Assembly (NCBI GenBank): GCA_038065615.1
Contig: JBBTQQ010000007.1
Span: forward strand, 12,473-76,472
DNA length: 64,000 nucleotides
Reading direction: 5' to 3'
From: Patescibacteria group bacterium
GTDB lineage: Bacteria > Patescibacteriota > Doudnabacteria > UBA920 > VMFF01
Shown here one piece after another: positions 3,578 to 29,508 of the stretch (positions are counted from its first letter, which is position 1; each line of letters opens with the position of its first letter). The notes beneath the pieces were generated by a model. It worked only from the letters and a program-made list of their open reading frames with translations. It was not told the DNA's origin and did no database searches. Position numbers and translations under genes: made by a program.

Positions 3578-4288
3578 ATGGGTCATTTATTCCAGATAAT
3601 TTTAGTTGATCCGCTGATTAACCTGATGGTCCTTGGGTACCAATATATACCAGATATTGGTGTTGTTATTATTTTGATAACCATTGTTGTTCGTTTGTTG
3701 TTGCTCCCCTCTTTTCACAAGTCTTTGAAAGCACAACGAGCAATGACTGAGCTGCAACCAAAGCTGAACGATCTTCGTGAAAAACACAAAGAGGATAAGG
3801 TTGCGCAAAGCCAAGCAATCATGGCTTTGTATCAAGAACACAAAGTTAGTCCATTGGGTTCTTGTTTGCCTTTGTTGATTCAGTTGCCTTTGTTGATTGC
3901 TTTGTATAAAGTTTTTATTTTAGGACTCGGTGGTTCTGAATTACAAACTTATTTATATCCATGGGTTCATAATCCAGGTATTTTAGATCCAACGTTTTTT
4001 AACCTTGTAGACTTGTCTAAGCCAAGCATAATCTTTGGTGTTGTTGCTGGTATAGCTCAGTTTGTTCAATCAAAGATGATGGTTTCTTCACAAAGCGGAG
4101 CTACAATGGATACAACTCAAAAAGCTTTGCAGATTCAGACAGTTTATGTTTTCCCAATCCTAACCGTGCTTTTGTCTATTAAACTTCCTGCTGGTTTACC
4201 TCTGTACTGGATTGTTACTACCCTGTTTGCTATAGGGCAGCAATATTATATAATGAAGGGCAATAAACCAAAGGTAGAGGTTGTATGA
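3578..4288 (+). CDS. yidC: Membrane protein insertase YidC (short form)
   Basis: 236 aa multi-TM protein with a YidC/Oxa1 core, in conserved synteny after yidD. Confidence 0.85.
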   Translation: MGHLFQIILVDPLINLMVLGYQYIPDIGVVIILITIVVRLLLLPSFHKSLKAQRAMTELQPKLNDLREKHKEDKVAQSQAIMALYQEHKVSPLGSCLPLLIQLPLLIALYKVFILGLGGSELQTYLYPWVHNPGILDPTFFNLVDLSKPSIIFGVVAGIAQFVQSKMMVSSQSGATMDTTQKALQIQTVYVFPILTVLLSIKLPAGLPLYWIVTTLFAIGQQYYIMKGNKPKVEVV

Positions 4289-4785
4289 ACTTAGACGATA
4301 ATCAAGAAAATCAAGGTCCAGTTCAAGAAATTAAAACCGCGGAAATCGCGGCTTTAATTAAAGAAGCGCTTGAAAAGATGAGCGTAGATTCAAGCGTAAG
4401 TGTAGAACAAAATGTTCAAGGTTTTACTTTTAACATTTCATCCCCTGATTCTAACTTGTTGATTGGTCAACGCGGGGCTAATCTTCATGCCTTGCAAACC
4501 TTGATTCACAATATTGCTTACAAGAAATATGGACCAACCGACCGCTTTATTCTAGATGTAGACGATTACAAAAAGAAAAGAGAGTGGTATTTAAGAGAAA
4601 CAGCAAAGAAAGCAGTAGAACAACTTAAGAGAACTGGACGTCCTGTTGCTCTAGAACCAATGCCACCACACGACCGAAGAGTAATACACGCATTTTTGTC
4701 AGCAGACTTTGATTTTGAAACAGAGAGTATTGGAGAAGAACCAAACAGAAGGATAGTAATAAAGCCAAAAGAAAAAGGATTTTAA
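4285..4785 (+). CDS. jag: RNA-binding protein Jag/KhpB (KH + R3H domains)
   Basis: 166 aa with a KH-like LIGQRGANLHALQ segment and an R3H-like C-terminus, overlapping the yidC stop by 4 nt. Confidence 0.8.
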   Translation: MNLDDNQENQGPVQEIKTAEIAALIKEALEKMSVDSSVSVEQNVQGFTFNISSPDSNLLIGQRGANLHALQTLIHNIAYKKYGPTDRFILDVDDYKKKREWYLRETAKKAVEQLKRTGRPVALEPMPPHDRRVIHAFLSADFDFETESIGEEPNRRIVIKPKEKGF

Positions 4786-4796
4786 AAGAATAATTA

Positions 4797-4827
4797 AAAG
4801 ACCCCGGAACATACCGGGGTCTTTTAA
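4797..4827 (+). terminator. Rho-independent terminator after jag
   Basis: GACCCCGGAACATACCGGGGTC hairpin followed by a T-run. Confidence 0.7.
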
Positions 4828-4844
4828 TTTAGTTCTTGTGCTCC

Positions 4845-4873
4845 TTGACATTTCTTTGGCGAAAGATTATAGT
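4845..4873 (+). promoter_or_regulatory. sigma70-like promoter (TTGACA, 17-nt spacer, TATAGT)
   Basis: TTGACA at about 4845-4850 and TATAGT at about 4868-4873. Confidence 0.55.
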
Positions 4874-4879
4874 TTGGAC

Positions 4880-4957
4880 ATGCAAAATCAACCTCAAAAT
4901 TTCAGCTATTACTTCAGCTACTGTAAACAGGGTTGGCATTTGCAATTGCTTAAGTAA
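4880..4957 (+). CDS. Putative attenuator leader peptide MQNQPQNFSYYFSYCKQGWHLQLLK (Phe/Tyr-rich)
   Basis: A 25-codon ORF begins about 7 nt after the -10 element. It has a run of 5 Phe/Tyr codons in 7 positions (F-S-Y-Y-F-S-Y). It is followed by a terminator hairpin, then the tyrA-pheA fusion gene. Confidence 0.45.
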   Translation: MQNQPQNFSYYFSYCKQGWHLQLLK

Positions 4958-4980
4958 GTAGATTTAGAAAGTAATTCAGC

Positions 4981-5012
4981 AACCCTTCGCTTCGTGCCAA
5001 GGGTTGTTTTTT
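4981..5012 (+). terminator. Candidate attenuator terminator upstream of tyrA-pheA
   Basis: AACCCTT-CGCTTCGTGCC-AAGGGTT hairpin followed by GTTTTTTT, 13 nt before the RBS/ATG of the downstream gene. Confidence 0.55.
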
Positions 5013-5024
5013 TAAAGGAAACAT

Positions 5025-6311
5025 ATGGAAACAGTCAGTATTATCGGTCATGGTAGGTTCGGTAAAGTTCTTGAAAAGATTTTAAGGACTGATTTTAACG
5101 TGCTTATTCATGATAGGTATTCGCCTAAATCAGTTACTGCTGAAAAAGCATGGCAAGCAAAAATAATTTTCATGGCAGTTCCGATTTCTAAATTTGAGGA
5201 GTCCCTTAAAGGCAATCTTAAATACTTAAGAACTGGACAAACTATAATTGATACCCTTTCTGTTAAAAGTCATCCAGACAAGATTTTGAAAAAATATTTG
5301 AAAGGAAAAGGAATAAACGTAATATTATCGCATCCGCTTTTCGGTCCGGACAGCTTTAGTGCTAAATCAAAAGGATTGTCCATTGTGATGTGGCCAAGTC
5401 TGGGATCAAAAAAAGAATACAAATTTTGGAAGGATTTTTTCCAGGTAAAAGGTTTTACGGTGGTAGAGCTAAGCCCCAAAAATCATGACCGTCTTGCAGC
5501 ATATTCTCAGGGATTAACTCACTTTGTAGGCAGGTTGCTGGAAGCTATTCATTTTAAGCCAACCGCAATTGACACATTGGGGGCAAAAAAACTTCATGAA
5601 ATAATGCAGCAAACTTGTAATGATTCCTGGAAACTTTTCCAGGATCTTCAAACCTACAATCCATACACCAAGCAAATGCGCCTAGATTTAGGAGTTGCGT
5701 ACAAAAAGATTTACGGACAGTTGTTACCTTCCAATCTAGGACTTCCCATATACGGAATACAAGGTGGCAAAGGTAGTTTTAGTGAACAAGCGCTAACAAG
5801 TTACACTCAAGCTGAAAACATCAAACACTTTAAAATCAAATACCTTTTCACCTCTGAAAAGGTATTGAATGAGCTAAATAAAGGGGGAATAGATTTTGGA
5901 GTATTCGCAATAGCGAATGGCACAGGAGGTCTGGTTGAGGAGTCAATGCAGGCAATAGCAAAATATAGCTTTGAGGTTGAAAACAATATTCCAATTTTTG
6001 TCAGGCATTGCTTAATGCGACGCAAAGATGCCAAAGGATCAATAAAAACAATTATGGCTCACGAACAGGTTTTCATGCAATGTAAAAATACTCTACGCAG
6101 AAAATATCCGAGAACAAAATTAGCAACCGGAGTTGGCGCAATGATTGATACGGCAAAAGTAGCTGAAACTTTAAGATCAGGCAAACTAAGCAAAAATGTC
6201 GCCATTCTAGGCCCCAAGATTTTAGCTGAAATGTATGACTTTGAGATATTAGACCAAGACCTCCAAGATAACAAAAAAAATACTACTACATTCTTAATAG
6301 TACGACGATGA
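5025..6311 (+). CDS. Bifunctional prephenate dehydrogenase (TyrA-like N-terminus) / prephenate dehydratase (PheA-like C-terminus) fusion, no ACT domain
   Basis: The N-terminus has a GHGRFG NAD-binding loop, SHPLFGP and NHDRLAAYSQGLTHF TyrA motifs. The C-terminal half has a PDT domain (IYGIQGGKGSFSEQA ... NTTTFLIV, matching the TRF motif). The protein ends right after the PDT domain. Confidence 0.75.
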   Translation: METVSIIGHGRFGKVLEKILRTDFNVLIHDRYSPKSVTAEKAWQAKIIFMAVPISKFEESLKGNLKYLRTGQTIIDTLSVKSHPDKILKKYLKGKGINVILSHPLFGPDSFSAKSKGLSIVMWPSLGSKKEYKFWKDFFQVKGFTVVELSPKNHDRLAAYSQGLTHFVGRLLEAIHFKPTAIDTLGAKKLHEIMQQTCNDSWKLFQDLQTYNPYTKQMRLDLGVAYKKIYGQLLPSNLGLPIYGIQGGKGSFSEQALTSYTQAENIKHFKIKYLFTSEKVLNELNKGGIDFGVFAIANGTGGLVEESMQAIAKYSFEVENNIPIFVRHCLMRRKDAKGSIKTIMAHEQVFMQCKNTLRRKYPRTKLATGVGAMIDTAKVAETLRSGKLSKNVAILGPKILAEMYDFEILDQDLQDNKKNTTTFLIVRR

Positions 6312-6390
6312 AAAAGCTCTATACACAATCTTTTTACTTTTATTTTATGCCTGGCTGAAGCTAGGGATTTTGAGTTGAAAAAATCGACTC

Positions 6391-6424
6391 AAGCTTCCTG
6401 GTTTTGGCCAGGAAGCTTTTTGGT
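6391..6424 (+). terminator. Rho-independent terminator after tyrA-pheA
   Basis: Perfect 11-bp stem AAGCTTCCTGG-TTTTGG-CCAGGAAGCTT followed by TTTTGG. Confidence 0.75.
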
Positions 6425-6473
6425 TCTTTAACAACCTTACCATGTCACCTTGTCACCCTTTTGGAGAAACACC

Positions 6474-7334
6474 ATGACACGAAAGATGCGTTACGAGAAA
6501 GTAATCCCTGTTATGAAGCACCAAAATTTGGTTAAGATCGGACATATGCACCTTGGTGGATGCGATTTTAAAACGGAGAAGTGCAGACCGTTTGTGATCG
6601 CCGGTCCATGCTCAGTAGAAGGGCTGGAGACGATGGAACAAACCGCTCGTTCTGTGCAGAGTTCTGGGGCAACAGCCCTGCGTGGTGGCGCTTTCAAACC
6701 TAGAACATCTCCGTATGAATTCCGGGGAATGCAGGAGGAAGGGCTAAAGATTCTGCGCGAGGTCAGTAATCAAACCAACATGCCGGTAGTGACTGAAGCA
6801 ATGGATACCAGACATGTTGATCTGGTTGCTTCCTATGCTGACGCCATCCAAATCGGCGCGCGAAACATGCAAAACTTCGCATTGCTTGAAGCATCTGGGG
6901 CAACAGGGAAACCTGTCCTGCTGAAGCGGGGGCCTTCGGCGACAATCAAGGAATTCTTGCTCGCCGCAGAATATATCATGAACGCAGGATCCCACGACCA
7001 GGTAATTCTGTGCGAGCGCGGGTTACGCAGCTTTGATAGCTACACCAGGAACCTTCTCGATATATCGGCTGTACCCGTGTTGCAATCAATGACTGATTTG
7101 CCTGTGATCGTTGATCCGAGCCATGCTGCCGGACGCAGTGATATTGTTCCCGCTTTATGCTATGCGGCTATTGCAGCAGGTGCGAACGGGCTAATTGTGG
7201 AAGTGCATCCCAACCCCAGAAAAGCGTTAACTGACGGTGATCAATCGCTCAACCTGTTTCAGTTTAGATACATGATGTACAAATTGGAATTGATTTCGGC
7301 CTGTACGCGGAGCAATGAAGGGGGTTACTCATGA
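6474..7334 (+). CDS. aroF: 3-deoxy-7-phosphoheptulonate (DAHP) synthase, class I-beta-like
   Basis: GPCSVEG ... [16 protein letters not shown] core. ATG at 6474 has a GGAGA RBS; the track gives a TTG start at 6450. Local GC is about 50% against a ~35% background. Confidence 0.8.
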
Positions 7335-7855
7335 ACGACTCTGGACATCGGCTTCTAAGTCTGCGAAGCAAAATTAAGAAAATTGATCTGCAAGTTCTTA
7401 AGCTAATTGCCCAAAGGATGGCGGTTGCAGAACAGATCGGGAGAACGAAGGCAGAATTTAGAATTCCGATTGAGAACGCTGAACAAGAAAGGGCCGTAAT
7501 GAACACCATATTGGTTGCTGCGGAGCAGGCTGCTCTCCCAGCAGACGATGTGACAGAAATCTTTTTGCTAATAATCTCTCTCAGCAAGAAGATGCAGGGT
7601 GCAATCATGAAGAAAAAGGAGGTCAAATCCGGCGTCGTCAAAGAAGAGATAATCCATGGCTTGGGTTATTGGACCAGACACGGATTTACGTCGGTGCCAG
7701 ACGAGAAATTCACCGAAGCGGAGATTATTGCCGCAAATGGGGGTAGCAGAGTTGGCGCGGGATACACAAATCTCGCCGGTGAAAACTGTGAGCTTCCAAG
7801 CTATTACCGTAGATGGAGCAAGTGGTGTAAAACAACAACTGAACCGGAGGAATAA
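7331..7855 (+). CDS. Chorismate mutase (AroQ class) with an uncharacterised ~75-aa C-terminal extension
   Basis: The N-terminal ~95 aa ([33 protein letters not shown]...) matches the AroQ helical chorismate mutase domain. ATGA start/stop overlap with DAHP synthase. Confidence 0.7.
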
Positions 7856-7928
7856 TTAGGCCAACAAAATCATGGCAGATACACGGTAAGGGTTCCAATT
7901 CACTGCAAAGTGGATTGAGAACCCCCTG

Positions 7929-7961
7929 CCCTTAACACATCAATTGTTGGTGTCTTGAGGA
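7929..7961 (+). repeat. 33-bp repeat copy A (CCCTTAACACATCAATTGTTGGTGTCTTGAGGA)
   Basis: Matches 41090-41122 at 30 of 33 positions. Both copies sit at the right edge of a GC-rich segment. Confidence 0.7.
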
Positions 7962-8110
7962 CAGACCATCTAAATTTCGTTCCCAAGTAAACTGTCTAAA
8001 AGCTTTTTATAACATTATTACCAATGGTGTTTGATTCGTTGACGCCAAATTGACAAGACGAATCAAACATAATATTCTGATTTTGGTAAGCTGATATTCT
8101 ACCTGTCAGG

Positions 8111-13069: not shown

Positions 13070-14828
13070 ATGCTTTGTTAAATCCTCCGGCTTGGATCTG
13101 CCAAAGTTTTTGGTAAGTTCCTTTGTTTGCTTTGAGAAGCTCTTTGTGTTTTCCTTCCTCAGTTATTTCTCCATTTTCAATGACAATGATTCTGTCCATG
13201 TTCATGATTGTTGAAAGTCTGTGAGCAATGACGATTGTTGTTTTCCCATGCATGAGGTTTATCATCGCATCTTGAATTAGTTTTTCAGACTCAGAATCAA
13301 GAGATGAGGTTGCTTCATCAAGAACAAGGATAGGAGCATTTTTTAGTATTGCTCTTGCTATTGCGATTCTTTGTCTTTCACCACCTGAAAGTTTAACTCC
13401 CCTTTCTCCAACGTAGGTGTTGTATTGATCTGGGAATTTATTTATGAACTCATCACAGTGTGCAAGTTTTGCAGCTACTTTAACTTCATCATCTGTGGCA
13501 TTTAGTTTTCCGTAACGGATGTTTTCCATTAAAGATCTATGGAAAAGAATTGGTTCTTGAGGAACAAGTGAAATGCCTTCTCTTAAGCTTGTTTGAGTAA
13601 CTTTAGAAATGTCTTGGTTATCAATGTATACTTTTCCTTTTTGTAGATCAAAGAATCTGAAGATTATTCTTGTAATTGTTGATTTACCACCACCAGAGGG
13701 ACCAATTAAAGCAACTTTCTCCCCTGCTCGTATATCAAGATTAAACTTTTTTAGAATGGATCCTGTTTTTTGATATCCGAATTCAACATTTTTAAAGCTT
13801 ATTGTTCCTTCAGTTACAGTTAAATCTTTTGCTCCTTTGATGTCTGCTACCTCATGAGGTGTTAGTAAGATGTCAGTCATTTCTTGAGCATCTGACATTG
13901 CTTCATAGTATTTACGAATGTTTTTACCAAAGTTCCAAAGATGATCAAACAACCCAATTATATATATTTGAATTAATACAAAGTCACCAACTGTTAGATG
14001 TGCGCTTTCCCTGTATTTTATGGCAAAGTAAAAGACGCCAAATTCTAGTAGCACCATAAATAGTGACTGAATCATTTCAGCAACGCCTGCCAGGGTCCAG
14101 CTAAAATGCTGTATCTTGTACCATTTTTGTTGAAGGGCGTTGAATGCTTTGATTTCAAAGTTGAGAGTTCCAAACAGCTTTATATTGATGTTGTTTGTTA
14201 TCGTATCTGCTAGTTGACCAGTTAGTTGACTGTCGATTTTTGATCTTTCAACATCATATTTTAGTTTGTATTCTGAAAAGAAGAATTGAAAACCAATGTA
14301 TGCAAAAGCCCAGACTAAGACCACTGCTCCAACGACCCATTGTCGTGTGGACAGAATAACAACAATTATTATGATTCTAAGAAGTGTTTGGGAAATGTTC
14401 CAGTAAGCAATGTCCACGATCGTTTCAAATGATCTAGAGAATTTGTTTACTTTCCTTACTAAGCTTCCTGCAAAGTTGTTGTTGAAGAAATTGTATGAGT
14501 GCTCTTGTAGATATTTGAAACAAGTGTTGGTTAAGTCCTTTATGACTCTGAGTTCAAAGAATTGGTTTAGAAAAGTTGCGCTTCTCCAGAAAACCCATGA
14601 CGTTAAAGCAGCGAGTAACATGTATACAAGGATGGTAAATAGCCTTGTTGTCATTCCTGGTTGGTTTAGCGCAATCTCATTGAACAACATTTTGTAGAGG
14701 AATGGTCTGAAAAGATCAGCAGATACAGCACAAATCATTGTTAAAACCATTATGAAAAATATCCAGGGATATTTTTTTGAATGATCCCAGAATATTCGAA
14801 TTGTTTCTTTTGTTAGGTGTTTGTTCAT
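13068..14828 (-). CDS. ABC transporter, fused permease/ATP-binding (MsbA-like exporter)
   Basis: Six TM helices followed by an ABC domain (Walker A GPSGGGKST, signature LSGGERQR, Walker B ILVLDEATS). Confidence 0.9.
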   Translation of the reverse strand: MNKHLTKETIRIFWDHSKKYPWIFFIMVLTMICAVSADLFRPFLYKMLFNEIALNQPGMTTRLFTILVYMLLAALTSWVFWRSATFLNQFFELRVIKDLTNTCFKYLQEHSYNFFNNNFAGSLVRKVNKFSRSFETIVDIAYWNISQTLLRIIIIVVILSTRQWVVGAVVLVWAFAYIGFQFFFSEYKLKYDVERSKIDSQLTGQLADTITNNINIKLFGTLNFEIKAFNALQQKWYKIQHFSWTLAGVAEMIQSLFMVLLEFGVFYFAIKYRESAHLTVGDFVLIQIYIIGLFDHLWNFGKNIRKYYEAMSDAQEMTDILLTPHEVADIKGAKDLTVTEGTISFKNVEFGYQKTGSILKKFNLDIRAGEKVALIGPSGGGKSTITRIIFRFFDLQKGKVYIDNQDISKVTQTSLREGISLVPQEPILFHRSLMENIRYGKLNATDDEVKVAAKLAHCDEFINKFPDQYNTYVGERGVKLSGGERQRIAIARAILKNAPILVLDEATSSLDSESEKLIQDAMINLMHGKTTIVIAHRLSTIMNMDRIIVIENGEITEEGKHKELLKANKGTYQKLWQIQAGGFNKA

Positions 14829-15298
14829 ATTTTTTTAAATCCTGCACAAAGTGCTATGGCTAAAGCATCCGCTGCATCATCAGGCTTAGGAAGTGTTTTT
14901 AGGTTAAATGTTTTTTGAACCATTAATTGGACCTGTTTTTTTTCTGCTTTACCGTAGCCGCAGATGATTGATTTAACTTGTAGTGGTGTAAATTCCTGGA
15001 GCTTTATCTTTTTTTGTTGAAGCGTTAGTAGTACCACACCTCTTGCTTGGGAAACAGTCATTGCAGTTTTGGCATTGTTTTCAAAGTATAGTTTTTCAAC
15101 TCCCGCAACTTCTGGTTTATATTTAGCTATTATTCTAATCAGGTCTTTTTGAACCTCAACTAATCTTTCAGAGTCGGTTTTGGTTTTTTTGGTTGAGATG
15201 ACTCCAAAATCAAGTATTTCAAAGCTGTTGTTTTTAAGTTTTTTGATTAAAGCATAGCCTGTTGTTGCTGTGCCTGGATCTATTCCGAGTATGATCAT
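14825..15298 (-). CDS. ruvC: Holliday junction resolvase RuvC
   Basis: MIILGIDPGTATTGYALI N-terminus and 157 aa length. Confidence 0.9.
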   Translation of the reverse strand: MIILGIDPGTATTGYALIKKLKNNSFEILDFGVISTKKTKTDSERLVEVQKDLIRIIAKYKPEVAGVEKLYFENNAKTAMTVSQARGVVLLTLQQKKIKLQEFTPLQVKSIICGYGKAEKKQVQLMVQKTFNLKTLPKPDDAADALAIALCAGFKKI

Positions 15299-15308
15299 AG
15301 TTTGTAGG

Positions 15309-16019
15309 TTAAAGGTTTCCTGATGTGTGTACTGCTACCACATCTTCATCATCTGAAAGCGCATCGAAGAGTTTTTGAACTGATGTGGTTTGTTCTGCGT
15401 TAAGAGCAACCCCCTGTGATGATTCCATTATTATTTCTGCTTGCGCTATTTTTGCACCAACTGTTGTTATATTGTTTTTAATTTTTTCTAAGTCTTCTGG
15501 TTTTGTGTATATTTCTAGACCTTCTGTTGATTCTCTTACATCATCAGCACCAGCATCAATGGCTGAAAGCTCGATCTCTGAAAGGTTCTCTGCTCTTTCA
15601 ACAAGGATTTGTCCTTTGGTTAGAAATTGCCATGCAACTGATCCGGGTTGGCCAATGTTTCCGCCATTTTTAGCGAATATTGTTCTGATGTTTTGGAATG
15701 TTCTGTTTGGATTATCACTAGCTGCTTCAACAATGAACGCTGTTCCTGCTGGACCATAGCCTTCATATTGTAAGGTGTGCATGTTGCTTGCGTCTGTACC
15801 AGATGCTTTTTTTATTGCTCTTTCAATATTGTCATTAGGCATTGCGTTTTCTCTTGCTTTTTGGATTGCTAAACGCAACTTAAAGTTAGTGTCAGGACTT
15901 GAACCGTCTTTTGCAGCTATAGTTATTTGTTTTGAAAGCTTTGAGAAGAGAGCTCCTTTTTTAACATCGGCTGCTCCTTTAGACCTTTTTATTTGTGCCC
16001 ATTTTGAGTGTCCTGACAT
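15309..16019 (-). CDS. yebC: YebC/PmpR family DNA-binding regulator
   Basis: MSGHSKWAQIKRSKGAADVKKGALFSKL is the hallmark YebC N-terminus. Confidence 0.9.
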   Translation of the reverse strand: MSGHSKWAQIKRSKGAADVKKGALFSKLSKQITIAAKDGSSPDTNFKLRLAIQKARENAMPNDNIERAIKKASGTDASNMHTLQYEGYGPAGTAFIVEAASDNPNRTFQNIRTIFAKNGGNIGQPGSVAWQFLTKGQILVERAENLSEIELSAIDAGADDVRESTEGLEIYTKPEDLEKIKNNITTVGAKIAQAEIIMESSQGVALNAEQTTSVQKLFDALSDDEDVVAVHTSGNL

Positions 16020-16020
16020 G

Positions 16021-16686
16021 TTATTTAAAGCTTACTAGTACAGTTATCTCCCCTTTTACACTGCCCCTTGCTTCTAGTTTGTTTAGAACTTCTGTTGCTG
16101 TTCCTCTAATGAATTCTTCGTGCATTTTTGTAAGTTCTCTTGCAACAACCACTTTTGAGTTTGGCCAGGTGTTTGCAATGAAGCCAACGCTTTTAATGAT
16201 TCTATGTGGGGATTCATAGAAAATTATGGTTGCTTCTAGTTCTTCCGCGCTTTTTAATTCATTGGTAAATTTAATTTCTGTTTTAGGTACAAAGCCAAGG
16301 AAGATGAATTTGTCAGTAGGTAAACCTGATGCACATAATGCGGTTATTGCAGCATTTGGTCCAGGGATAGGCACAACTTGTATTTCCTTTGCAATTGCTG
16401 CTCTAACAATTCTAAAGCCCGGGTCTGATATTCCGGGAGTTCCCGCATCACTTAGAAGCACTGCATTTTTGTTCGCTATTTCTTTTAATACTATTGGTAG
16501 TTTTTCTTGTTCATTGTGTTCTGCAAACTGAATGAATCTTTTTGCAGGAATGTTTAAGTGCTCAAAAAGACGTTTTGAGTAAGATGGGTTTTCAGCAATA
16601 ACTAGATCACAATCTGCGAGAGTTTGTTTTGCTCTGTCAGAAAGATCAGAAAGGTTCCCTATTGGAGTTGATAGTACGTACAACAT
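16021..16686 (-). CDS. rsmI: 16S rRNA (cytidine1402-2'-O)-methyltransferase RsmI
   Basis: Tetrapyrrole-methylase fold with LYVLSTPIGNLSDLS N-terminus. Confidence 0.8.
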   Translation of the reverse strand: MLYVLSTPIGNLSDLSDRAKQTLADCDLVIAENPSYSKRLFEHLNIPAKRFIQFAEHNEQEKLPIVLKEIANKNAVLLSDAGTPGISDPGFRIVRAAIAKEIQVVPIPGPNAAITALCASGLPTDKFIFLGFVPKTEIKFTNELKSAEELEATIIFYESPHRIIKSVGFIANTWPNSKVVVARELTKMHEEFIRGTATEVLNKLEARGSVKGEITVLVSFK

Positions 16687-17315
16687 TATTTTGAGTAGTG
16701 GGTTAATTTTAATCCGTGTTCAATGCATTTGTCTTTTCTTGCAGTGCAGTATTTTCTTCCAAGCCAGATTAGTTGATCGGCGAATTTGATCCAATCTTTC
16801 TCTGGAACTATTTGCATTAACTCCCCCTCTATTTTAGCAGGATCTGTGTGTTTAGTCAGACCAAGACGCTTAGCTACTCTTTTAACATGTGTATCAACAA
16901 CAAAACCTGATGTAATACCAAACGCGTGTCCTAAAACTACGTTTGCTGTTTTGCTTGCTACCCCTGGAAGTTTAATGAGTAGTTTCTTTTCTCTTGGTAT
17001 CTTGTCTTTGTATTCTTCGTGGATTATTCTGCTTGTTTTCTGGATCATTTTAGCTTTGTTTCTGTAGAAAGTAACTGGGTATATGTCTTTTGTTAGTTGA
17101 TTGATGTTTGCGTTTGCAAAGGCTTTTGGTGTTTTGTATTTCTTGAAAAGCGGTTTTGTTATTTTGTTTACAAGAGTATCAGTGCATTGTGCTGAGAGAA
17201 TTGTTGCGATTAGTAGCTGAAAAGGAGTCTTGTATATTAAAGAGGTTGTTGTTTTTGGAAACAATCTGTCTAGTTCTTTCTTTATGTTTTTGACCCTGAT
17301 TTTTAGGTTTTGCAT
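16686..17315 (-). CDS. nth: Endonuclease III (HhH-GPD DNA glycosylase)
   Basis: LPGVASKTANVVLGHAFG HhH-GPD motif and C-terminal Cys cluster. Confidence 0.85.
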   Translation of the reverse strand: MQNLKIRVKNIKKELDRLFPKTTTSLIYKTPFQLLIATILSAQCTDTLVNKITKPLFKKYKTPKAFANANINQLTKDIYPVTFYRNKAKMIQKTSRIIHEEYKDKIPREKKLLIKLPGVASKTANVVLGHAFGITSGFVVDTHVKRVAKRLGLTKHTDPAKIEGELMQIVPEKDWIKFADQLIWLGRKYCTARKDKCIEHGLKLTHYSK

Positions 17316-17612
17316 GAGGTTATCATAACATGGGGGGTTGTTTACAAAAACAAAACTCTCCCGAAAGGAGAGTTTTGCTGAAAAGTTCCACTAAAGAGCT
17401 ATTTAACCATTGCAATGTATTTATCGCAATTATAATGTTAGTGAACCTAACACTTTGTTTTTGTATTCAATTGTATTTTATTTTTGTTTCAATTCACCTC
17501 ACGGCGAATTTGAACTTTTCTAAATCTATTATATCAGAAAAAACGACTTTGGTCAATGGTTTGTTGAGTTTGGATATATGCGATATACTGTTTTTAGAAT
17601 TAAATTTGAAGA

Positions 17613-18551
17613 ATGAATCCACAAAATATTTTGAGTGTTAGATTTTTGTTAGGGAGATCTTGGGAAATATACAAAACAAAGTTTGCTCTTTTGTTTGGCA
17701 TATTATCAGCACCTTTGGTTGTTATGGTTTTGTCGTATCTTTTATCAGAGCTTTTGCCTCCGCTTTCTTTTGTGTTGCTCATCTTGGCAGGGTTGCTTGG
17801 TTGGGCAAGTCAGCTTGCTATGATTTATGCATTAAAGACACCAGGAGTTGGTGTTTTGGAAGCATACAAGTTAGGGTTGTCTAAAATATTGTCAGTTATA
17901 TGGATCGGAATATTGATTGTTGGTAATTTAGCTTCTGCTATTGCTCTGCCTTTGATTCTTGCCTTTGTTGCTTTGTCTATCAAAGAAGCTGGGATGCTTG
18001 AATCATCAAAGACTCTGTTCTTTACAGTTTCAGGAGCTGGTATATTGTTAGCTGTCTTAGGCGTTATTTTTGCGATATATTTGAGTATTCTTTTTCAGTT
18101 TTCTACATATTCCTTGATTATTGACGATCATAAAGGTGTTAATGCTCTTTCTGCAAGCACTAGCTTAGTTAAGGGAAGATGGTTTATGGTTTTTGTGAGA
18201 ATCCTCGCAATGGTGGTTATCTTTACTATCCCGGTTGTTATACTAGATATGTTTATGCAGGATCAACAAGGTTTGTTTAATTTAATTCAGTCAGCCTTTG
18301 GATATATCATTGCTCCGTTTATTGTTGCATATATGTACAGTTTGTTTGTTGGTATGAAAGAAGAGAAAGTGGTTAATGTAGAAGAAAATGTTAATCAAAG
18401 GGATTGGGTTGTTGGACGTGCTGCCTTTGGTTTTGCAACAATTCTTGCTTTGCTCTTGTTTTTGATTGTTGTTCAGAAGACAACGTATTTTCCGGGTTTG
18501 AAAGAAAAGCTTGGCGTTATGAAGGCGCAGAGTAGTATATACACTAAGTAA
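17613..18551 (+). CDS. Hypothetical polytopic membrane protein
   Basis: 312 aa with multiple TM helices. Architecture is similar to the ORF at 58191. Confidence 0.5.
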   Translation: MNPQNILSVRFLLGRSWEIYKTKFALLFGILSAPLVVMVLSYLLSELLPPLSFVLLILAGLLGWASQLAMIYALKTPGVGVLEAYKLGLSKILSVIWIGILIVGNLASAIALPLILAFVALSIKEAGMLESSKTLFFTVSGAGILLAVLGVIFAIYLSILFQFSTYSLIIDDHKGVNALSASTSLVKGRWFMVFVRILAMVVIFTIPVVILDMFMQDQQGLFNLIQSAFGYIIAPFIVAYMYSLFVGMKEEKVVNVEENVNQRDWVVGRAAFGFATILALLLFLIVVQKTTYFPGLKEKLGVMKAQSSIYTK

Positions 18552-18555
18552 TTAA

Positions 18556-18586
18556 AAAATCCCCGACACTGTTCGGGGATTTTTTC
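18556..18586. terminator. Rho-independent terminator
   Basis: AAAAAATCCCCGACACTGTTCGGGGATTTTTT. Confidence 0.7.
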
Positions 18587-18662
18587 TGGTGGGCATGCCA
18601 GGACTCGAACCTGGGACCAATTGTGTATAAGACAATCGCTCTACCAACTGAGCTACATGCCC
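18587..18662 (-). tRNA. tRNA-Ile (anticodon UAU)
   Basis: Manual cloverleaf GGGCATG/TA/GCTC..GAGC/G/ATTGT-CTTATAC-ACAAT/TGGTC/CCAGG-TTCGAGT-CCTGG/CATGCCC/A/CCA. CCA is encoded. Confidence 0.7.
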
Positions 18663-18674
18663 TTAAGCTGCCTA

Positions 18675-21116
18675 TTATATTACAGCACTTGAGGCAACTT
18701 TGTCACCATCATCAAGACGCATGACTCTAACTCCTTGGGTTGCACGACCTAAGGTTGAGATGGTGTTGAGTTTGGTTCTTAGAGCTTGTCCGTTTCTTGA
18801 AAATAGCACGAGATCATGTTCTTCGCTTCCTGTAACAATGTGCATTGAGATGATCTTGCCTGTCTTGTCAGTTACTTTCAGCGTCTTTATACCAGAACCA
18901 CCTCGCTTCTGTATTTTGTAGAAAGAAAGGTCTGTCTTTTTGCCTAATCCATTTTCAGTAACTATTAAGACTTGGAGATCTTTAACATTGTCTTCTTTTG
19001 GAATTATATCCATGCTCATCAGAAGGTCTTTTCCTTTCAAACGCATACCACGAACTCCAGATGCTCCTCTGCCCATTGGACGAATATCTTTTTCTGAGAA
19101 ACGAATTGCTTGTCCTAGTTCTGTTGAAAGCATTATTTGGTCATCGCCATTTGAAAGGTTAACCCATTTTAGTTCATCATCACCTTTCAGCTTTATAGCG
19201 ATCATTCCGCTTCTGCGCACTTTAGTAAATGAATCTGATTCAACTTTTTTGATTAAACCTTTTTTGGTTGTCATTACCAGGTATTTTGCTGGCGATTTTT
19301 TTGCTTGGCAAAGGATTGCTGTTGCATATTCTCCAGAACCAAGTTGCAGGAAGTTAACTAATGCTTGTCCTTTTGCAACTCTGGAGCTCTCTGGAATTTC
19401 ATAGACTTTTGTTTGGAATATGCGTCCTTTGTTAGTAAAGAACATCATGTCATCATGTGTGTTTGCGGAAATGACAACATCAACAACATCCTCTTCTTTT
19501 GTAGTCATGCCAATGACGCCTTTTCCGCCTCTTCCTTGTGTTTTGTATGTGTCAGGAGCTAATCGCTTGATGTATCCAGACTTGGTTGTTGTTATGATTA
19601 CGTTTTCTTCTGCTATTAAGTCCTCAGCCTTGAACTCTCCAATTGGAGTTTTAACAACTTGAGTTCTTCTTTCATCACCAAATTTTTCTTTAAGTTCAAA
19701 AACTTCTTTTTTGATTATTGCAAGAATCTTTTTTGGTGAACGAAGTATGTCTTCTAATTCAGCAATGAGTTTTTTCTTTTCTGCTAGTTCTTCATCAATT
19801 TTTTTTCTTTCTAATCCAGCAAGTGTTTGTAAGCGCATCTCTAAGATTGCGCGAGTTTGAATTTCTGAGAGTTTGAATTTCTTAACTAGGTTTTCAAAAG
19901 CTTCTTCTTTTGTTGGAGATTTCTTTATGACTGCAATTACTTCATCAATGTGATCTAAAGCTTTTTTTAATCCCTCAAGGACATGTGCTCTTTCTTTTGC
20001 TTTGCTTAGATCAAACTCTGTTTTTCTTTTAACAACAATTTGTCTGTGTTCAAGGTATTTTTCAAGAACTGTTTTTAGGTTTAAGATCATTGGTTCAATA
20101 CCACCAACCAATGCCAGCATGTTCATGTGGAATGTTTCTTGAAGTTGGCTGTATTTAAAGAGTTGGTTTAGAATTTTGTTTGCTAAAGCATCTTTTTTCA
20201 AATCAACAACAATGCGAACACCATCTTTGTCTGATTCGTCTCTTAAGTCTTTGATACCCTCAACTCTTTTTTCTTTTACTAGGTCTGCGAATTTTTGTAG
20301 TAGTGTTGCTTTGTTAACTCTGTAAGGAATTTCTGTGATGAGGATTTGGTATGCGCCGGTTTTTGTTTCTACTATGTCTGTTTTAGCGCGCATTACAATA
20401 CTGCCTTTTCCTGTCGCATACGCCTCTTTTATGGCATTGATGTCATAGATAATTCCGCCAGTTGGGAAATCCGGGCCTTTGATGAATTGAAGTAGATCTT
20501 CGGTTGTTGCTTTAGGGTCATCTATTAACGTAGTTATCGCATCGCAGATTTCTGTAAGGTTGTGTGGTGGGATGTCTGTTGCCATGCCAACAGCAATACC
20601 TAAGGTTCCATTAAGGAGCAAGTTAGGTAGTTTTGCAGGTAAAACAACTGGTTCTTTTTTGGTTGCGTCAAAATTGTCTCTGTAATCAACTGTTTCTTTT
20701 TCAATATCAGTAAGCAGTTCTTCAGCCATTTGGCTCATTCTTGCCTCTGTGTATCTGTAAGCAGCTGCTCCGTCCCCGTCCATTGAACCAAAGTTTCCTT
20801 GACCATCAATGATTGGGTAGCGCATAGCAAAGTCTTGAGCCATGTGTACCATTGAGTCATATACCGCAACGTCGCCATGTGGGTGATATTTTGCAAGAAC
20901 GTCTCCAACAACTGATGCTGATTTTCTGAATTTCGCGTTATGTCTTAAACCTTGTTCGTGCATTGAATACAAGATACGTCTGTGTACAGGTTTTAATCCA
21001 TCTCTTACATCAGGAAGAGCACGATCAACAATTACGCTCATCGCGTAATCAAGGAAGCTCTCTTGCATTTCTGATTCTATTGTACGTTGGCGTAAAACGC
21101 CGATTTCGTCTGACAT
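18675..21116 (-). CDS. gyrA: DNA gyrase subunit A
   Basis: 813 aa with GyrA N-terminal signature ([20 protein letters not shown]) and C-terminal beta-pinwheel repeats. Confidence 0.95.
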
Positions 21117-21117
21117 A

Positions 21118-21348
21118 TTATTTACTTTGTTCTGAAGGTAGTGTTAATTGCGATTTATCAAGTTTGAAATTCTTTATTCCGTTTTCTATTGTTTTGAAGA
21201 GGTCTAGATTTTTGTTTGCTCCGTTTTTGTAGTTCCCTATTAAGATCCAAATGCCGATTAGAACAACCACTGCTATTACCGTAGTCATCCAAAGCAGCCG
21301 TATTTTTTCTTCTTTGGGTTTAGCTCTTAGTTTTTCTAACCACCCCAT
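21118..21348 (-). CDS. Small hypothetical membrane protein
   Basis: 76 aa with a single TM helix, tightly packed between gyrA and the MBL gene. Confidence 0.4.
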
Positions 21349-29133: not shown

Positions 29134-29210
<77 letters not shown>

Positions 29211-29215
29211 AAATA

Positions 29216-29508
29216 TGCCTCGGTAGCTCAGTGGTAGAGCGCAGCCCTAAAAATCTTTGGGGCCATGAGTAGTAATATTCATTGAGAAAAATTGGGTGAA
29301 TTCGGGGAAAACCGTTTATTAAGTTAAGCGACAATCCCGAGCCAAGCCAAGAAGGGTTTAAGTTTCTTGGAAGGTGTAGAGACTAGCAAGTGAGTCCCAA
29401 CAATAATCTTGCACTAGCGCCCAACTCCTCTTTTAGAGGATGATGAGATAGTCCAAATAGCCTTGGAAGAGGCTGGCGTCGTCAGTTCGATTCTGACCCG
29501 AGGCACCA
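29216..29508 (+). tRNA. tRNA-Phe (anticodon GAA) interrupted by a group I intron in the anticodon loop
   Basis: The 5' exon GCCTCGG/TA/GCTCAGTGGTAGAGC/G/CAGCC/CU ends at 29247. The 3' exon GAAGA/GGCTG/GCGTC/GTCAG-TTCGATT-CTGAC/CCGAGGC/A/CCA starts at 29466. Together they fold into a canonical cloverleaf. The Phe assignment depends on splice-site placement. Confidence 0.7.
29248..29465 (+). ncRNA. Group I self-splicing intron (~218 nt) in the tRNA anticodon loop
   Basis: P1 is exon ..GCCCU paired with intron GGGGC (U.G at the splice site). P10 is intron UCUUU paired with 3' exon GAAGA. The intron ends in G. Core segments CAATCCCGAGCCAAGCCAAG and GGAAGGTGTAGAGACTAGC resemble the cyanobacterial tRNA-Leu group I intron core, as recalled from memory. 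Confidence 0.7.

Follow-up and report, generated by a model that had tools for sequence, protein, structure and literature searches.

The question raised by this locus is whether a member of the Patescibacteria adjusts the synthesis of phenylalanine and tyrosine to their supply by means of a leader peptide. In the 64,000-nucleotide (nt) stretch of contig JBBTQQ010000007.1 analysed here (hereafter the window), the gene for a prephenate/arogenate dehydrogenase-prephenate dehydratase fusion (tyrA-pheA) is preceded by a promoter, a short open reading frame (ORF) with the aromatic run FSYYFSY, and a hairpin followed by a T-run. It is very probable that this unit (attenuator 1, 4880-5013) is a ribosome-mediated leader-peptide transcription attenuator, which would tie expression of the fusion gene to the availability of charged tRNA-Phe and tRNA-Tyr. 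We infer its function computationally throughout, including ribosome stalling and the response to Phe and Tyr. The promoter, ORF, aromatic run, terminator, and downstream gene with PDH and PDT domains named in the initial annotation of this sequence are all present, and its suggestion of a logic like that of pheL/pheA is supported for attenuation, mainly through comparison with relatives. Initiation would differ from that of pheL: no Shine-Dalgarno sequence precedes the leader, which is presumed to be translated from a leaderless mRNA.

A close relative, a metagenome-assembled bacterium from a species collection (L001), has a fusion protein 86% identical to that of the window. Attenuator 1 is identical to its L001 counterpart at 125 of 134 positions (binomial P ~1e-11), with the neutral level set at 69.4% from the third codon positions of the flanking genes (66% identity in jag, 68% in yidC, and 72% in the fusion gene). 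The leader ORF is conserved at 73 of 78 positions (94%), the spacer at 18 of 22, and the terminator (4980-5013) at 34 of 34, and both promoter hexamers are unaltered in L001. The L001 leader encodes MQNLPQNFGYYFSFCKQGWYLQLLK, in which the aromatic run reads FGYYFSF; aromatic positions stay aromatic (Y to F), while the others drift. Third positions are the best conserved (25/26), and each of the four altered codons changes the residue (Q to L, S to G, Y to F, and H to Y). This substitution pattern therefore fits selection on RNA pairing and regulatory codons, not on the peptide product, and the comparison clearly points to selection on the window's copy of the attenuator.

Similar devices recur in more distant genomes. 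Fusion proteins with 46% to 55% identity are common in Patescibacteria metagenomes, whose source names include Roizmanbacteria and Torokbacteria. These relatives hold the shikimate-pathway genes and the fusion gene together in one operon of 10-11 genes, in the order DAHP synthase, DHQ synthase, EPSP synthase, shikimate kinase, shikimate dehydrogenase, dehydroquinase, chorismate synthase, chorismate mutase, (aminotransferase), and fusion gene, often followed by a class Ib tRNA synthetase. Because the fusion gene usually sits deep inside this long operon, leaders immediately 5' of it were mostly not found among 80 metagenome loci; they appeared at the operon starts. Where the operon start could be reached, a mini-ORF with a Phe/Tyr run is followed by a GC-rich hairpin and a T-run. 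In total, 23 such leader ORFs, each followed by a terminator, stand at the starts of aromatic operons in 15 distinct loci, the window and its two leaders included, and the aromatic codon run is conserved among them (L025, L026, and L027 are copies of one sequence). On long contigs, six of seven operon starts have a leader before the DAHP synthase or fusion gene, three of them with two leaders in tandem. The initial annotation had called such a device unexpected in a Patescibacteria-like genome; it is, rather, usual at the heads of these aromatic operons. The association is also strand-specific. Over 465 kb of related loci, the gene strand has 26 aromatic-run mini-ORFs, of which 18 are followed by a terminator, 17 of these being upstream of aromatic genes; on the opposite strand, a terminator follows 2 of 53.

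The leader peptides fall into two types. Leader ORF 1 of the window resembles a promoter-proximal type (M-Q/K-N-x3-4-N-F-Y...), represented by MQKNPSRQFNFFFFYFF, MQNSSLNHNYFYFF, and MKNxxxxNFYFYF of relatives, while a second leader in the window, which lies downstream of the fusion gene and is described below, resembles a downstream type (...FYFYF-Y/M-P-A/I/G). Examples include the single leader of L018 (MIKTSKFYFYFFYPAKGGLGCSEFY) and the paired leaders of L025 (MRKINTINFYFFYYPQKAA and MDNRIKTNFFYFYYPAEAG), L085 (MKNTTAQNFYFYNDPPCGGSCNC and MNIKLVLKFYFYFYPA), and L088 (MKNSVNKNFYFYFYSACGGGECDC and MGIKTRPSLFYFYFYPI). Locus L090, in which the fusion gene stands alone as it does in the window, has the leader MQKNPSRQFNFFFFYFFRFRKLGFSKFKN. 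In all leaders but L076b, where it begins at codon 16, the in-frame Phe/Tyr run begins at codon 7-11 of an ATG ORF. Read by eye, a -10 box stands 6-12 nt 5' of the ATG in the promoter-proximal leaders of relatives, which have no Shine-Dalgarno sequence (for example, TTGACA-17-TAGTAT-8-ATG in L076 and TTGACA-16-TATAAT-9-ATG in L085). Such a spacing would give 5' untranslated regions of about 0-6 nt.

The feature that ties these leaders to the proposed regulatory switch is a pairing partner for the terminator. When a stalled ribosome was represented by a mask on the aromatic codons (12 nt each side of the P and A sites, an assumed conventional figure) and only RNA preceding the 3' arm of the terminator was folded, the 5' arm of the terminator paired in 20 of 20 leaders with a segment between -28 and +16 nt from the end of the leader stop codon; L090 gave the same pairing, bringing the total to 21 of 21. 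For 18 of 20 leaders, only 0-2 of 200 shuffles of the upstream part formed an antiterminator of equal strength. Equilibrium folds of the full-length RNA flip from antiterminator (ribosome on the run) to terminator (ribosome at the stop codon) in L018, L025a/b, L040a, L076b, L052, and the second attenuator of the window. The pairing sequences vary by locus and the topology is constant, as in AGGGUUG/CAACCCU, AGCUGGGG/CCCCAGCU, GGCGGG/CCCGCC, GGGAUUGU/ACAAUCCC, and, read from the fold, CGGGAGG/CCUCCCG in L052. We read these differing pairs in a shared layout as covariation at the level of the family.

In the window, the elements of attenuator 1 (Table 1) are in the expected order. The promoter is the top-scoring site of 4.5 kb scanned. 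Its match to the consensus is by itself weak evidence and only mildly significant, because the whole window contains six sites with 11/12 or better on both strands and shuffled sequences contain 2.8 +/- 1.5. The near-consensus promoter of the initial annotation is thus confirmed, with a gap of 6 nt, not about 7, between the end of the -10 box and the ATG. The leader ORF is also as first described, with Phe or Tyr at five of seven consecutive codons and a single Trp codon (4934-4936). The latter is more likely structural than regulatory, because it lies within the stem-forming segment GGUUGG. Dinucleotide shuffles of the 239-nt intergenic region yield an ATG ORF with at least five Phe/Tyr codons in seven in 0.56% of cases (P 0.0056), and in the whole window 7 of 684 small ATG ORFs on both strands have such a run. 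Two of these seven most aromatic mini-ORFs of the 64 kb directly precede the two aromatic-pathway transcription units of the window, and each is then followed by a terminator.

The leader ATG has no Shine-Dalgarno-like sequence 5' of it. (A count of Shine-Dalgarno sequences over the long ORFs of the window, 17/51, rested on a crude choice of start codons and was not used.) For sigma-70 promoters, a -10 box that ends at 4873 places the expected start site at or beside the A of this ATG, and promoter spacing thus predicts transcription from A4880 or an adjacent position. The absence of a Shine-Dalgarno sequence and the short distance of 6 nt from the -10 box to the AUG make it probable that the leader is translated from a leaderless mRNA.

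Folding, proposed in the initial annotation as a way of finding mutually exclusive pairings, revealed such pairings. In the untranslated RNA, segment 1 pairs with segment 2 and the terminator hairpin is formed (-34.8 kcal/mol, z = -3.2); L090 has an equivalent of segment 1 (CCCAGC) 5' of its aromatic run. In the nascent RNA that precedes the 3' arm of the terminator, the minimum free energy (MFE) structure under the stalled-ribosome mask pairs 4929-4935 with 4980-4986 over an inner hairpin (-14.8 kcal/mol), and the same AGGGUUG:CAACCCU pairing is the MFE structure in the nascent RNA of L001. The terminator hairpin (4980-5006, followed by U7) has 10-12 base pairs (bp) and an energy of about -13.6 to -16.6 kcal/mol; a simple terminator scan did not pick it up. 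The strong terminator of the initial annotation is therefore upheld, with 11 nt, not 13, between the end of the T-run (5013) and the ATG of the fusion gene.

These elements suggest the following mechanism. The RNA would begin with the leader AUG, on which a ribosome would load without a Shine-Dalgarno sequence. With Phe and Tyr plentiful, the ribosome would pass FSYYFSY and reach the UAA at 4955, with segment 2 inside the ribosome or re-paired with segment 1. The hairpin 4980-5006 with its U7 would then form, and transcription would stop at about 5007-5013 to give a transcript of about 134 nt. With Phe or Tyr scarce, the ribosome would stall on codons 8-12, mask segment 1, and free AGGGUUG (4929-4935), which would pair with CAACCCU (4980-4986) as this emerges from the polymerase. 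The terminator would thereby be blocked and the polymerase would enter the fusion gene.

Several observations weigh against this interpretation of attenuator 1, and the window's first copy is the weakest example of its family. Its antiterminator has only 7 bp, the weakest of the set, and 5% to 13% of upstream shuffles (10-27 of 200) pair equally well; for its L001 counterpart, 6-21 of 200 do. The aromatic run is broken by Ser, with five aromatic codons in seven as compared with six to seven in most relatives, and a ribosome stalled on the last Tyr codon would overlap part of segment 2. Equilibrium folding of the full-length RNA with the ribosome mask gives no flip for attenuator 1. Because the terminator wins at equilibrium, the choice between the two structures must be kinetic, made during transcription, and the switch of the Escherichia coli trp attenuator is usually described as kinetic as well. 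The putative transcription start comes from promoter geometry, and translation of the leader, with no Shine-Dalgarno sequence, would need leaderless initiation in an uncultured lineage. Finally, one of the seven operon starts on long contigs, that of L092, has no Phe/Tyr leader.

Other readings of the locus are less likely. The unit could be a free-standing small gene of about 134 nt, producing a trans-acting small RNA or a hydrophobic micropeptide, with a position before tyrA-pheA that has no regulatory meaning. It is a full promoter-to-terminator unit, the preference for the terminator at equilibrium would make the short RNA its main product, and trans roles are described for attenuator-derived RNAs and peptides of Sinorhizobium (PMC7298713, PMC7968998). 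However, outside the aromatic run the peptide is unconserved, and every codon in which the window and L001 differ encodes a different residue. Among relatives, without exception, the unit precedes aromatic biosynthesis genes on their own strand, and in every case a segment near the leader stop codon can pair with the 5' arm of the terminator, a partner for which a plain small-RNA gene would have no need. We therefore consider a small gene unlikely as a full account, and a trans role could exist alongside attenuation.

Marginally less likely again is a decaying attenuator that now acts as a constant partial terminator and sets a low basal level of tyrA-pheA. The antiterminator is the weakest and the aromatic run the most interrupted in the set, and the arrangement of the locus departs from the 10-11-gene operon of relatives. 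A tblastn search with the proteins of a relative's operon found no DHQ synthase, EPSP synthase, shikimate kinase, shikimate dehydrogenase, dehydroquinase, or chorismate synthase gene in the 64-kb window. Decay is, however, at odds with the conservation of leader and terminator against L001, far above that of neutral sites, and with the nature of the changes, in which the only altered Tyr went to Phe and one His became Tyr. The solo fusion gene of L090 also has the same layout with a strong aromatic codon run.

A ligand-, tRNA-, or protein-binding switch (riboswitch, T-box, or TRAP-like), to which the ORF would be incidental, is a poorer candidate still. Alternative terminator and antiterminator structures are shared by all such systems, and one related locus (L089, 8343-8685) has a long leader with GGUGGUACCG before an aminoacyl-tRNA synthetase gene. 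Here a promoter-like TTGACA...TATAAT and a leader of about 340 nt precede a tRNA-synt_1b gene that also encodes an editing domain; the leader has the look of a T-box, and no Rfam model matches it at the gathering threshold. At 95-155 nt, the attenuator leaders are too short and variable for a structured aptamer or T-box, and neither the window leader nor the 15 related loci match any Rfam family at threshold. The sole feature common to all copies beyond the hairpins is the in-frame Phe/Tyr codon run, which stays unexplained without translation. That a promoter-like site, an AT-rich ORF, and an unrelated terminator fell together by chance is scarcely credible: TTY and TAY codons are frequent at 36% GC and promoter-like sites of 11/12 are only about twice as common as in shuffles, but the rarity of such ORFs in shuffles, their recurrence, the pairing, and the conservation in L001 contradict it.

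Ribosome-mediated attenuation, which we prefer to these alternatives, would also govern a second site in the window. Attenuator 2 (6308-6421) stands between the fusion gene and the DAHP synthase gene, beyond the stretch covered by the initial annotation, which did not include it. Its leader ORF resembles the downstream leaders of relatives (...KFYFYFYPA/I) and that of L037, and by eye the leader RNA is recognisably like the L037 RNA. Against L001, 110 of 114 positions of attenuator 2 are identical (P ~2e-13), including 49 of 51 in the leader ORF and 61 of 63 (97%) in the attenuator RNA. With the ribosome mask on the Phe/Tyr codons, the full-length RNA folds into the antiterminator, and with the mask moved to the stop codon it adopts the terminator; none of 200 shuffles matched its antiterminator. 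Attenuator 2 has no segment 1, and its MFE structure without a ribosome is a long antiterminator hairpin (-47 kcal/mol, z = -6.7). Termination here should occur only once a ribosome has arrived at the stop codon (6356-6358). Attenuator 2 would thus act as a second checkpoint, on which ribosomes that finish the fusion gene load through the ATGA overlap of its stop codon with the leader start codon, and it would gate the DAHP synthase and chorismate mutase genes. A general scan of the window for mini-ORFs followed by terminators gave no convincing leader with a run of other amino acids besides the two Phe/Tyr leaders.

The second leaders of L025, L040, L076, L085, L087, and L088 have neither a promoter nor a clear Shine-Dalgarno sequence on which ribosome loading could depend. 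For the second leader of the window, the ATGA overlap offers a route for loading. One reading is that the layout of the window may descend from a tandem pair that was since split by the fusion gene.

We lean slightly towards a broader interpretation, in which these leaders form an undescribed, phylum-wide family of bivalent (Phe and Tyr) attenuators on the aromatic super-operon of Patescibacteria, with leaderless or near-leaderless leader ORFs that often occur in tandem. In the window, the pair would be split by tyrA-pheA, and the second copy would be an internal attenuator loaded by termination and reinitiation at ATGA. A full-text literature search found no paper that joins Patescibacteria or the Candidate Phyla Radiation with leader peptides and attenuation, although most subscription journals lie outside its coverage and the result is no proof of novelty. 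Leader-peptide attenuation itself is textbook knowledge, and the interest lies in the lineage and the design. This is a known mechanism in a new lineage, distinguished by alternating Phe/Tyr codons, presumed leaderless initiation, tandem copies, and an internal copy coupled by stop and start codons.

The nearest counterpart in logic is pheL-pheA of E. coli and other gammaproteobacteria. Both systems have a run of end-product codons in a short leader ORF, a terminator just before a prephenate dehydratase gene, and an alternative pairing that uses the 5' arm of the terminator. There is no homology in sequence or structure, and the Patescibacteria leaders differ from pheL in their mixture of Phe and Tyr codons (Phe only in pheL), in the leaderless start presumed for the window leader, which has no Shine-Dalgarno sequence, in their target (a TyrA-PheA fusion in the window and a 10-11-gene operon in relatives), and in their frequent tandem arrangement. 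The Rfam model Phe_leader (RF01859) had no match on the + strand at E <= 10 and scored 18.9 bits on the - strand, compared with a threshold of 55. A permissive Rfam scan of 4700-5100 gave only sub-threshold matches, mostly from the terminator of the preceding Jag-like gene and including His_leader and Phe_leader on the wrong strand. Documented pheL leaders are from gammaproteobacteria, with few candidates outside the proteobacteria (PMC3082878), and in Actinobacteria, Phe and Tyr operons were reported from comparative analysis to have no RNA regulatory structure 5' of them (PMC1262725).

Leaders that mix the codons of several amino acids, as these do, have precedents in enteric bacteria. The thr leader contains Thr and Ile codons and the ilvGMEDA leader contains Ile, Val, and Leu codons, and a shortage of any one of these relieves termination. 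The Patescibacteria leaders differ from them in amino acids, lineage, and mode of initiation, and in the near-strict alternation of codons in relatives (FYFYFY). Leaderless leader peptides have been predicted in Deinococcus deserti, with an AUG at or 1 nt from mapped transcription starts 5' of amino-acid biosynthesis or tRNA synthetase genes, and the examples in the available part of that report include no Phe or Tyr operon (PMC4007540). The D. deserti leaders are like the arrangement predicted here in having the AUG at or near the transcription start 5' of an amino-acid gene. They belong to another phylum, and their starts were mapped experimentally, while ours come from promoter spacing. In Firmicutes, T-box and TRAP control of aromatic genes also involves regulated termination 5' of the genes and a signal that is ultimately tRNA charging or amino acid level. 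Sensing there occurs through tRNA-RNA or protein-RNA contacts for which translation is not needed, and no T-box model matches the window leader.

If the family interpretation is correct, reduced and probably symbiotic bacteria would use tight coupling of transcription and translation, together with ribosome loading at the 5' end, to regulate one of the few biosynthetic pathways that they retain. Patescibacteria would thus tune the synthesis of aromatic amino acids to supply, which would require a ribosome close behind the RNA polymerase and initiation at a 5'-terminal AUG. In practice, a mini-ORF with a Phe/Tyr run would mark the start of an aromatic operon in metagenome-assembled genomes, whose gene calls leave such ORFs out.

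Table 1 Features of the two attenuators and of the genes that they precede, in window coordinates
Feature	Position	Strand	Description	Basis
Sigma-70-type promoter	4845-4873	+	TTGACA (4845-4850), 17-nt spacer, TATAGT (4868-4873)	Consensus match 11/12
Leader ORF 1	4880-4957	+	MQNQPQNFSYYFSYCKQGWHLQLLK, 25 codons and stop	ORF between promoter and ATG 5025
Segment 1	4881-4894	+	UGCAAA-A-UCAACCU; pairs with segment 2 in untranslated RNA	Minimum-energy fold
Regulatory codons, leader 1	4901-4921	+	Codons 8-14, TTC AGC TAT TAC TTC AGC TAC (F S Y Y F S Y)	Sequence
Segment 2	4929-4944	+	GGGUUGG-CA-UUUGCA (4930-4944), partner of segment 1; AGGGUUG (4929-4935), antiterminator partner of segment 3	Folding
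Segment 3	4980-4990	+	5' arm of terminator, DNA CAACCCTTCGC, RNA CAACCCUUCGC; first 7 nt also 3' strand of antiterminator	Folding
Segment 4	4996-5013	+	3' arm of terminator (4996-5006), DNA GCCAAGGGTTG, RNA GCCAAGGGUUG, then T7/U7 (5007-5013)	Folding
tyrA-pheA fusion gene	5025-6311	+	Prephenate/arogenate dehydrogenase-prephenate dehydratase, 428 amino acids (aa); Shine-Dalgarno AGGA (5016-5019)	Pfam
Leader ORF 2	6308-6358	+	MKKLYTQSFYFYFMPG and stop; ATG overlaps TGA of fusion gene (ATGA); regulatory codons 6332-6346	ORF scan, also in L001
Attenuator 2 RNA	6357-6421	+	Antiterminator 6357-6367 with 6395-6405 over inner hairpin; terminator 6393-6402 with 6407-6416, then T5 (6417-6421)	Folding
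DAHP synthase and chorismate mutase-domain genes	6474-7855	+	DAHP synthase 6474-7334 (GGAG at 6463-6466), then chorismate mutase-domain ORF 7331-7855	Pfam, called gene starts

The product of the regulated gene has an N-terminal PDH_N domain and a C-terminal PDT domain in Pfam, in agreement with its designation as a tyrA-pheA fusion in the initial annotation; a precomputed match to TYRAAT1_C is also present, and no further family was reported. Metagenomes in which this genome occurs include ERR3858138, SRR32696679, and SRR32696708. The DAHP synthase and chorismate mutase genes lie in a stretch (6440-8000) with a GC content of about 50%, in surroundings of about 36%, and the DAHP synthase has only 27% identity to that of the L085 operon. 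It looks like a horizontally acquired replacement. Attenuator 1 follows a Jag-like gene (R3H/KH domains, 4285-4785) with a two-way terminator of its own (4792-4829). This terminator differs from that of L001 by a compensatory pair change (CCCCGG...CCGGGG as compared with CCCCAG...CTGGGG).

The aromatic operon of L092 begins 38 nt (4181-4217) from a divergent tRNA synthetase gene. On the other strand of the same locus (14145-21290), a Trp_repressor-family gene lies beside a complete trp operon and a DAHP synthase gene. In six loci (L014, L020, L034, L054, L067, and L068), a gap of 130-220 nt with hairpins and T-runs, and no aromatic leader, precedes the chorismate mutase gene; the gene 5' of this gap is about 360 aa where complete, the size of chorismate synthase in annotated relatives. 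A conserved element between the chorismate synthase and chorismate mutase genes was considered and dropped, as the six loci align poorly (44% mean column identity); the gaps of L020 and L067 have one conserved stretch in common. Rfam scans of the 15 related loci and the whole window at gathering thresholds returned tRNAs and a group I intron only, with no T-box or riboswitch. The intron match (78 bits) is at 29239-29475 of the window, about 30 nt past a tRNA match at 29135-29208.

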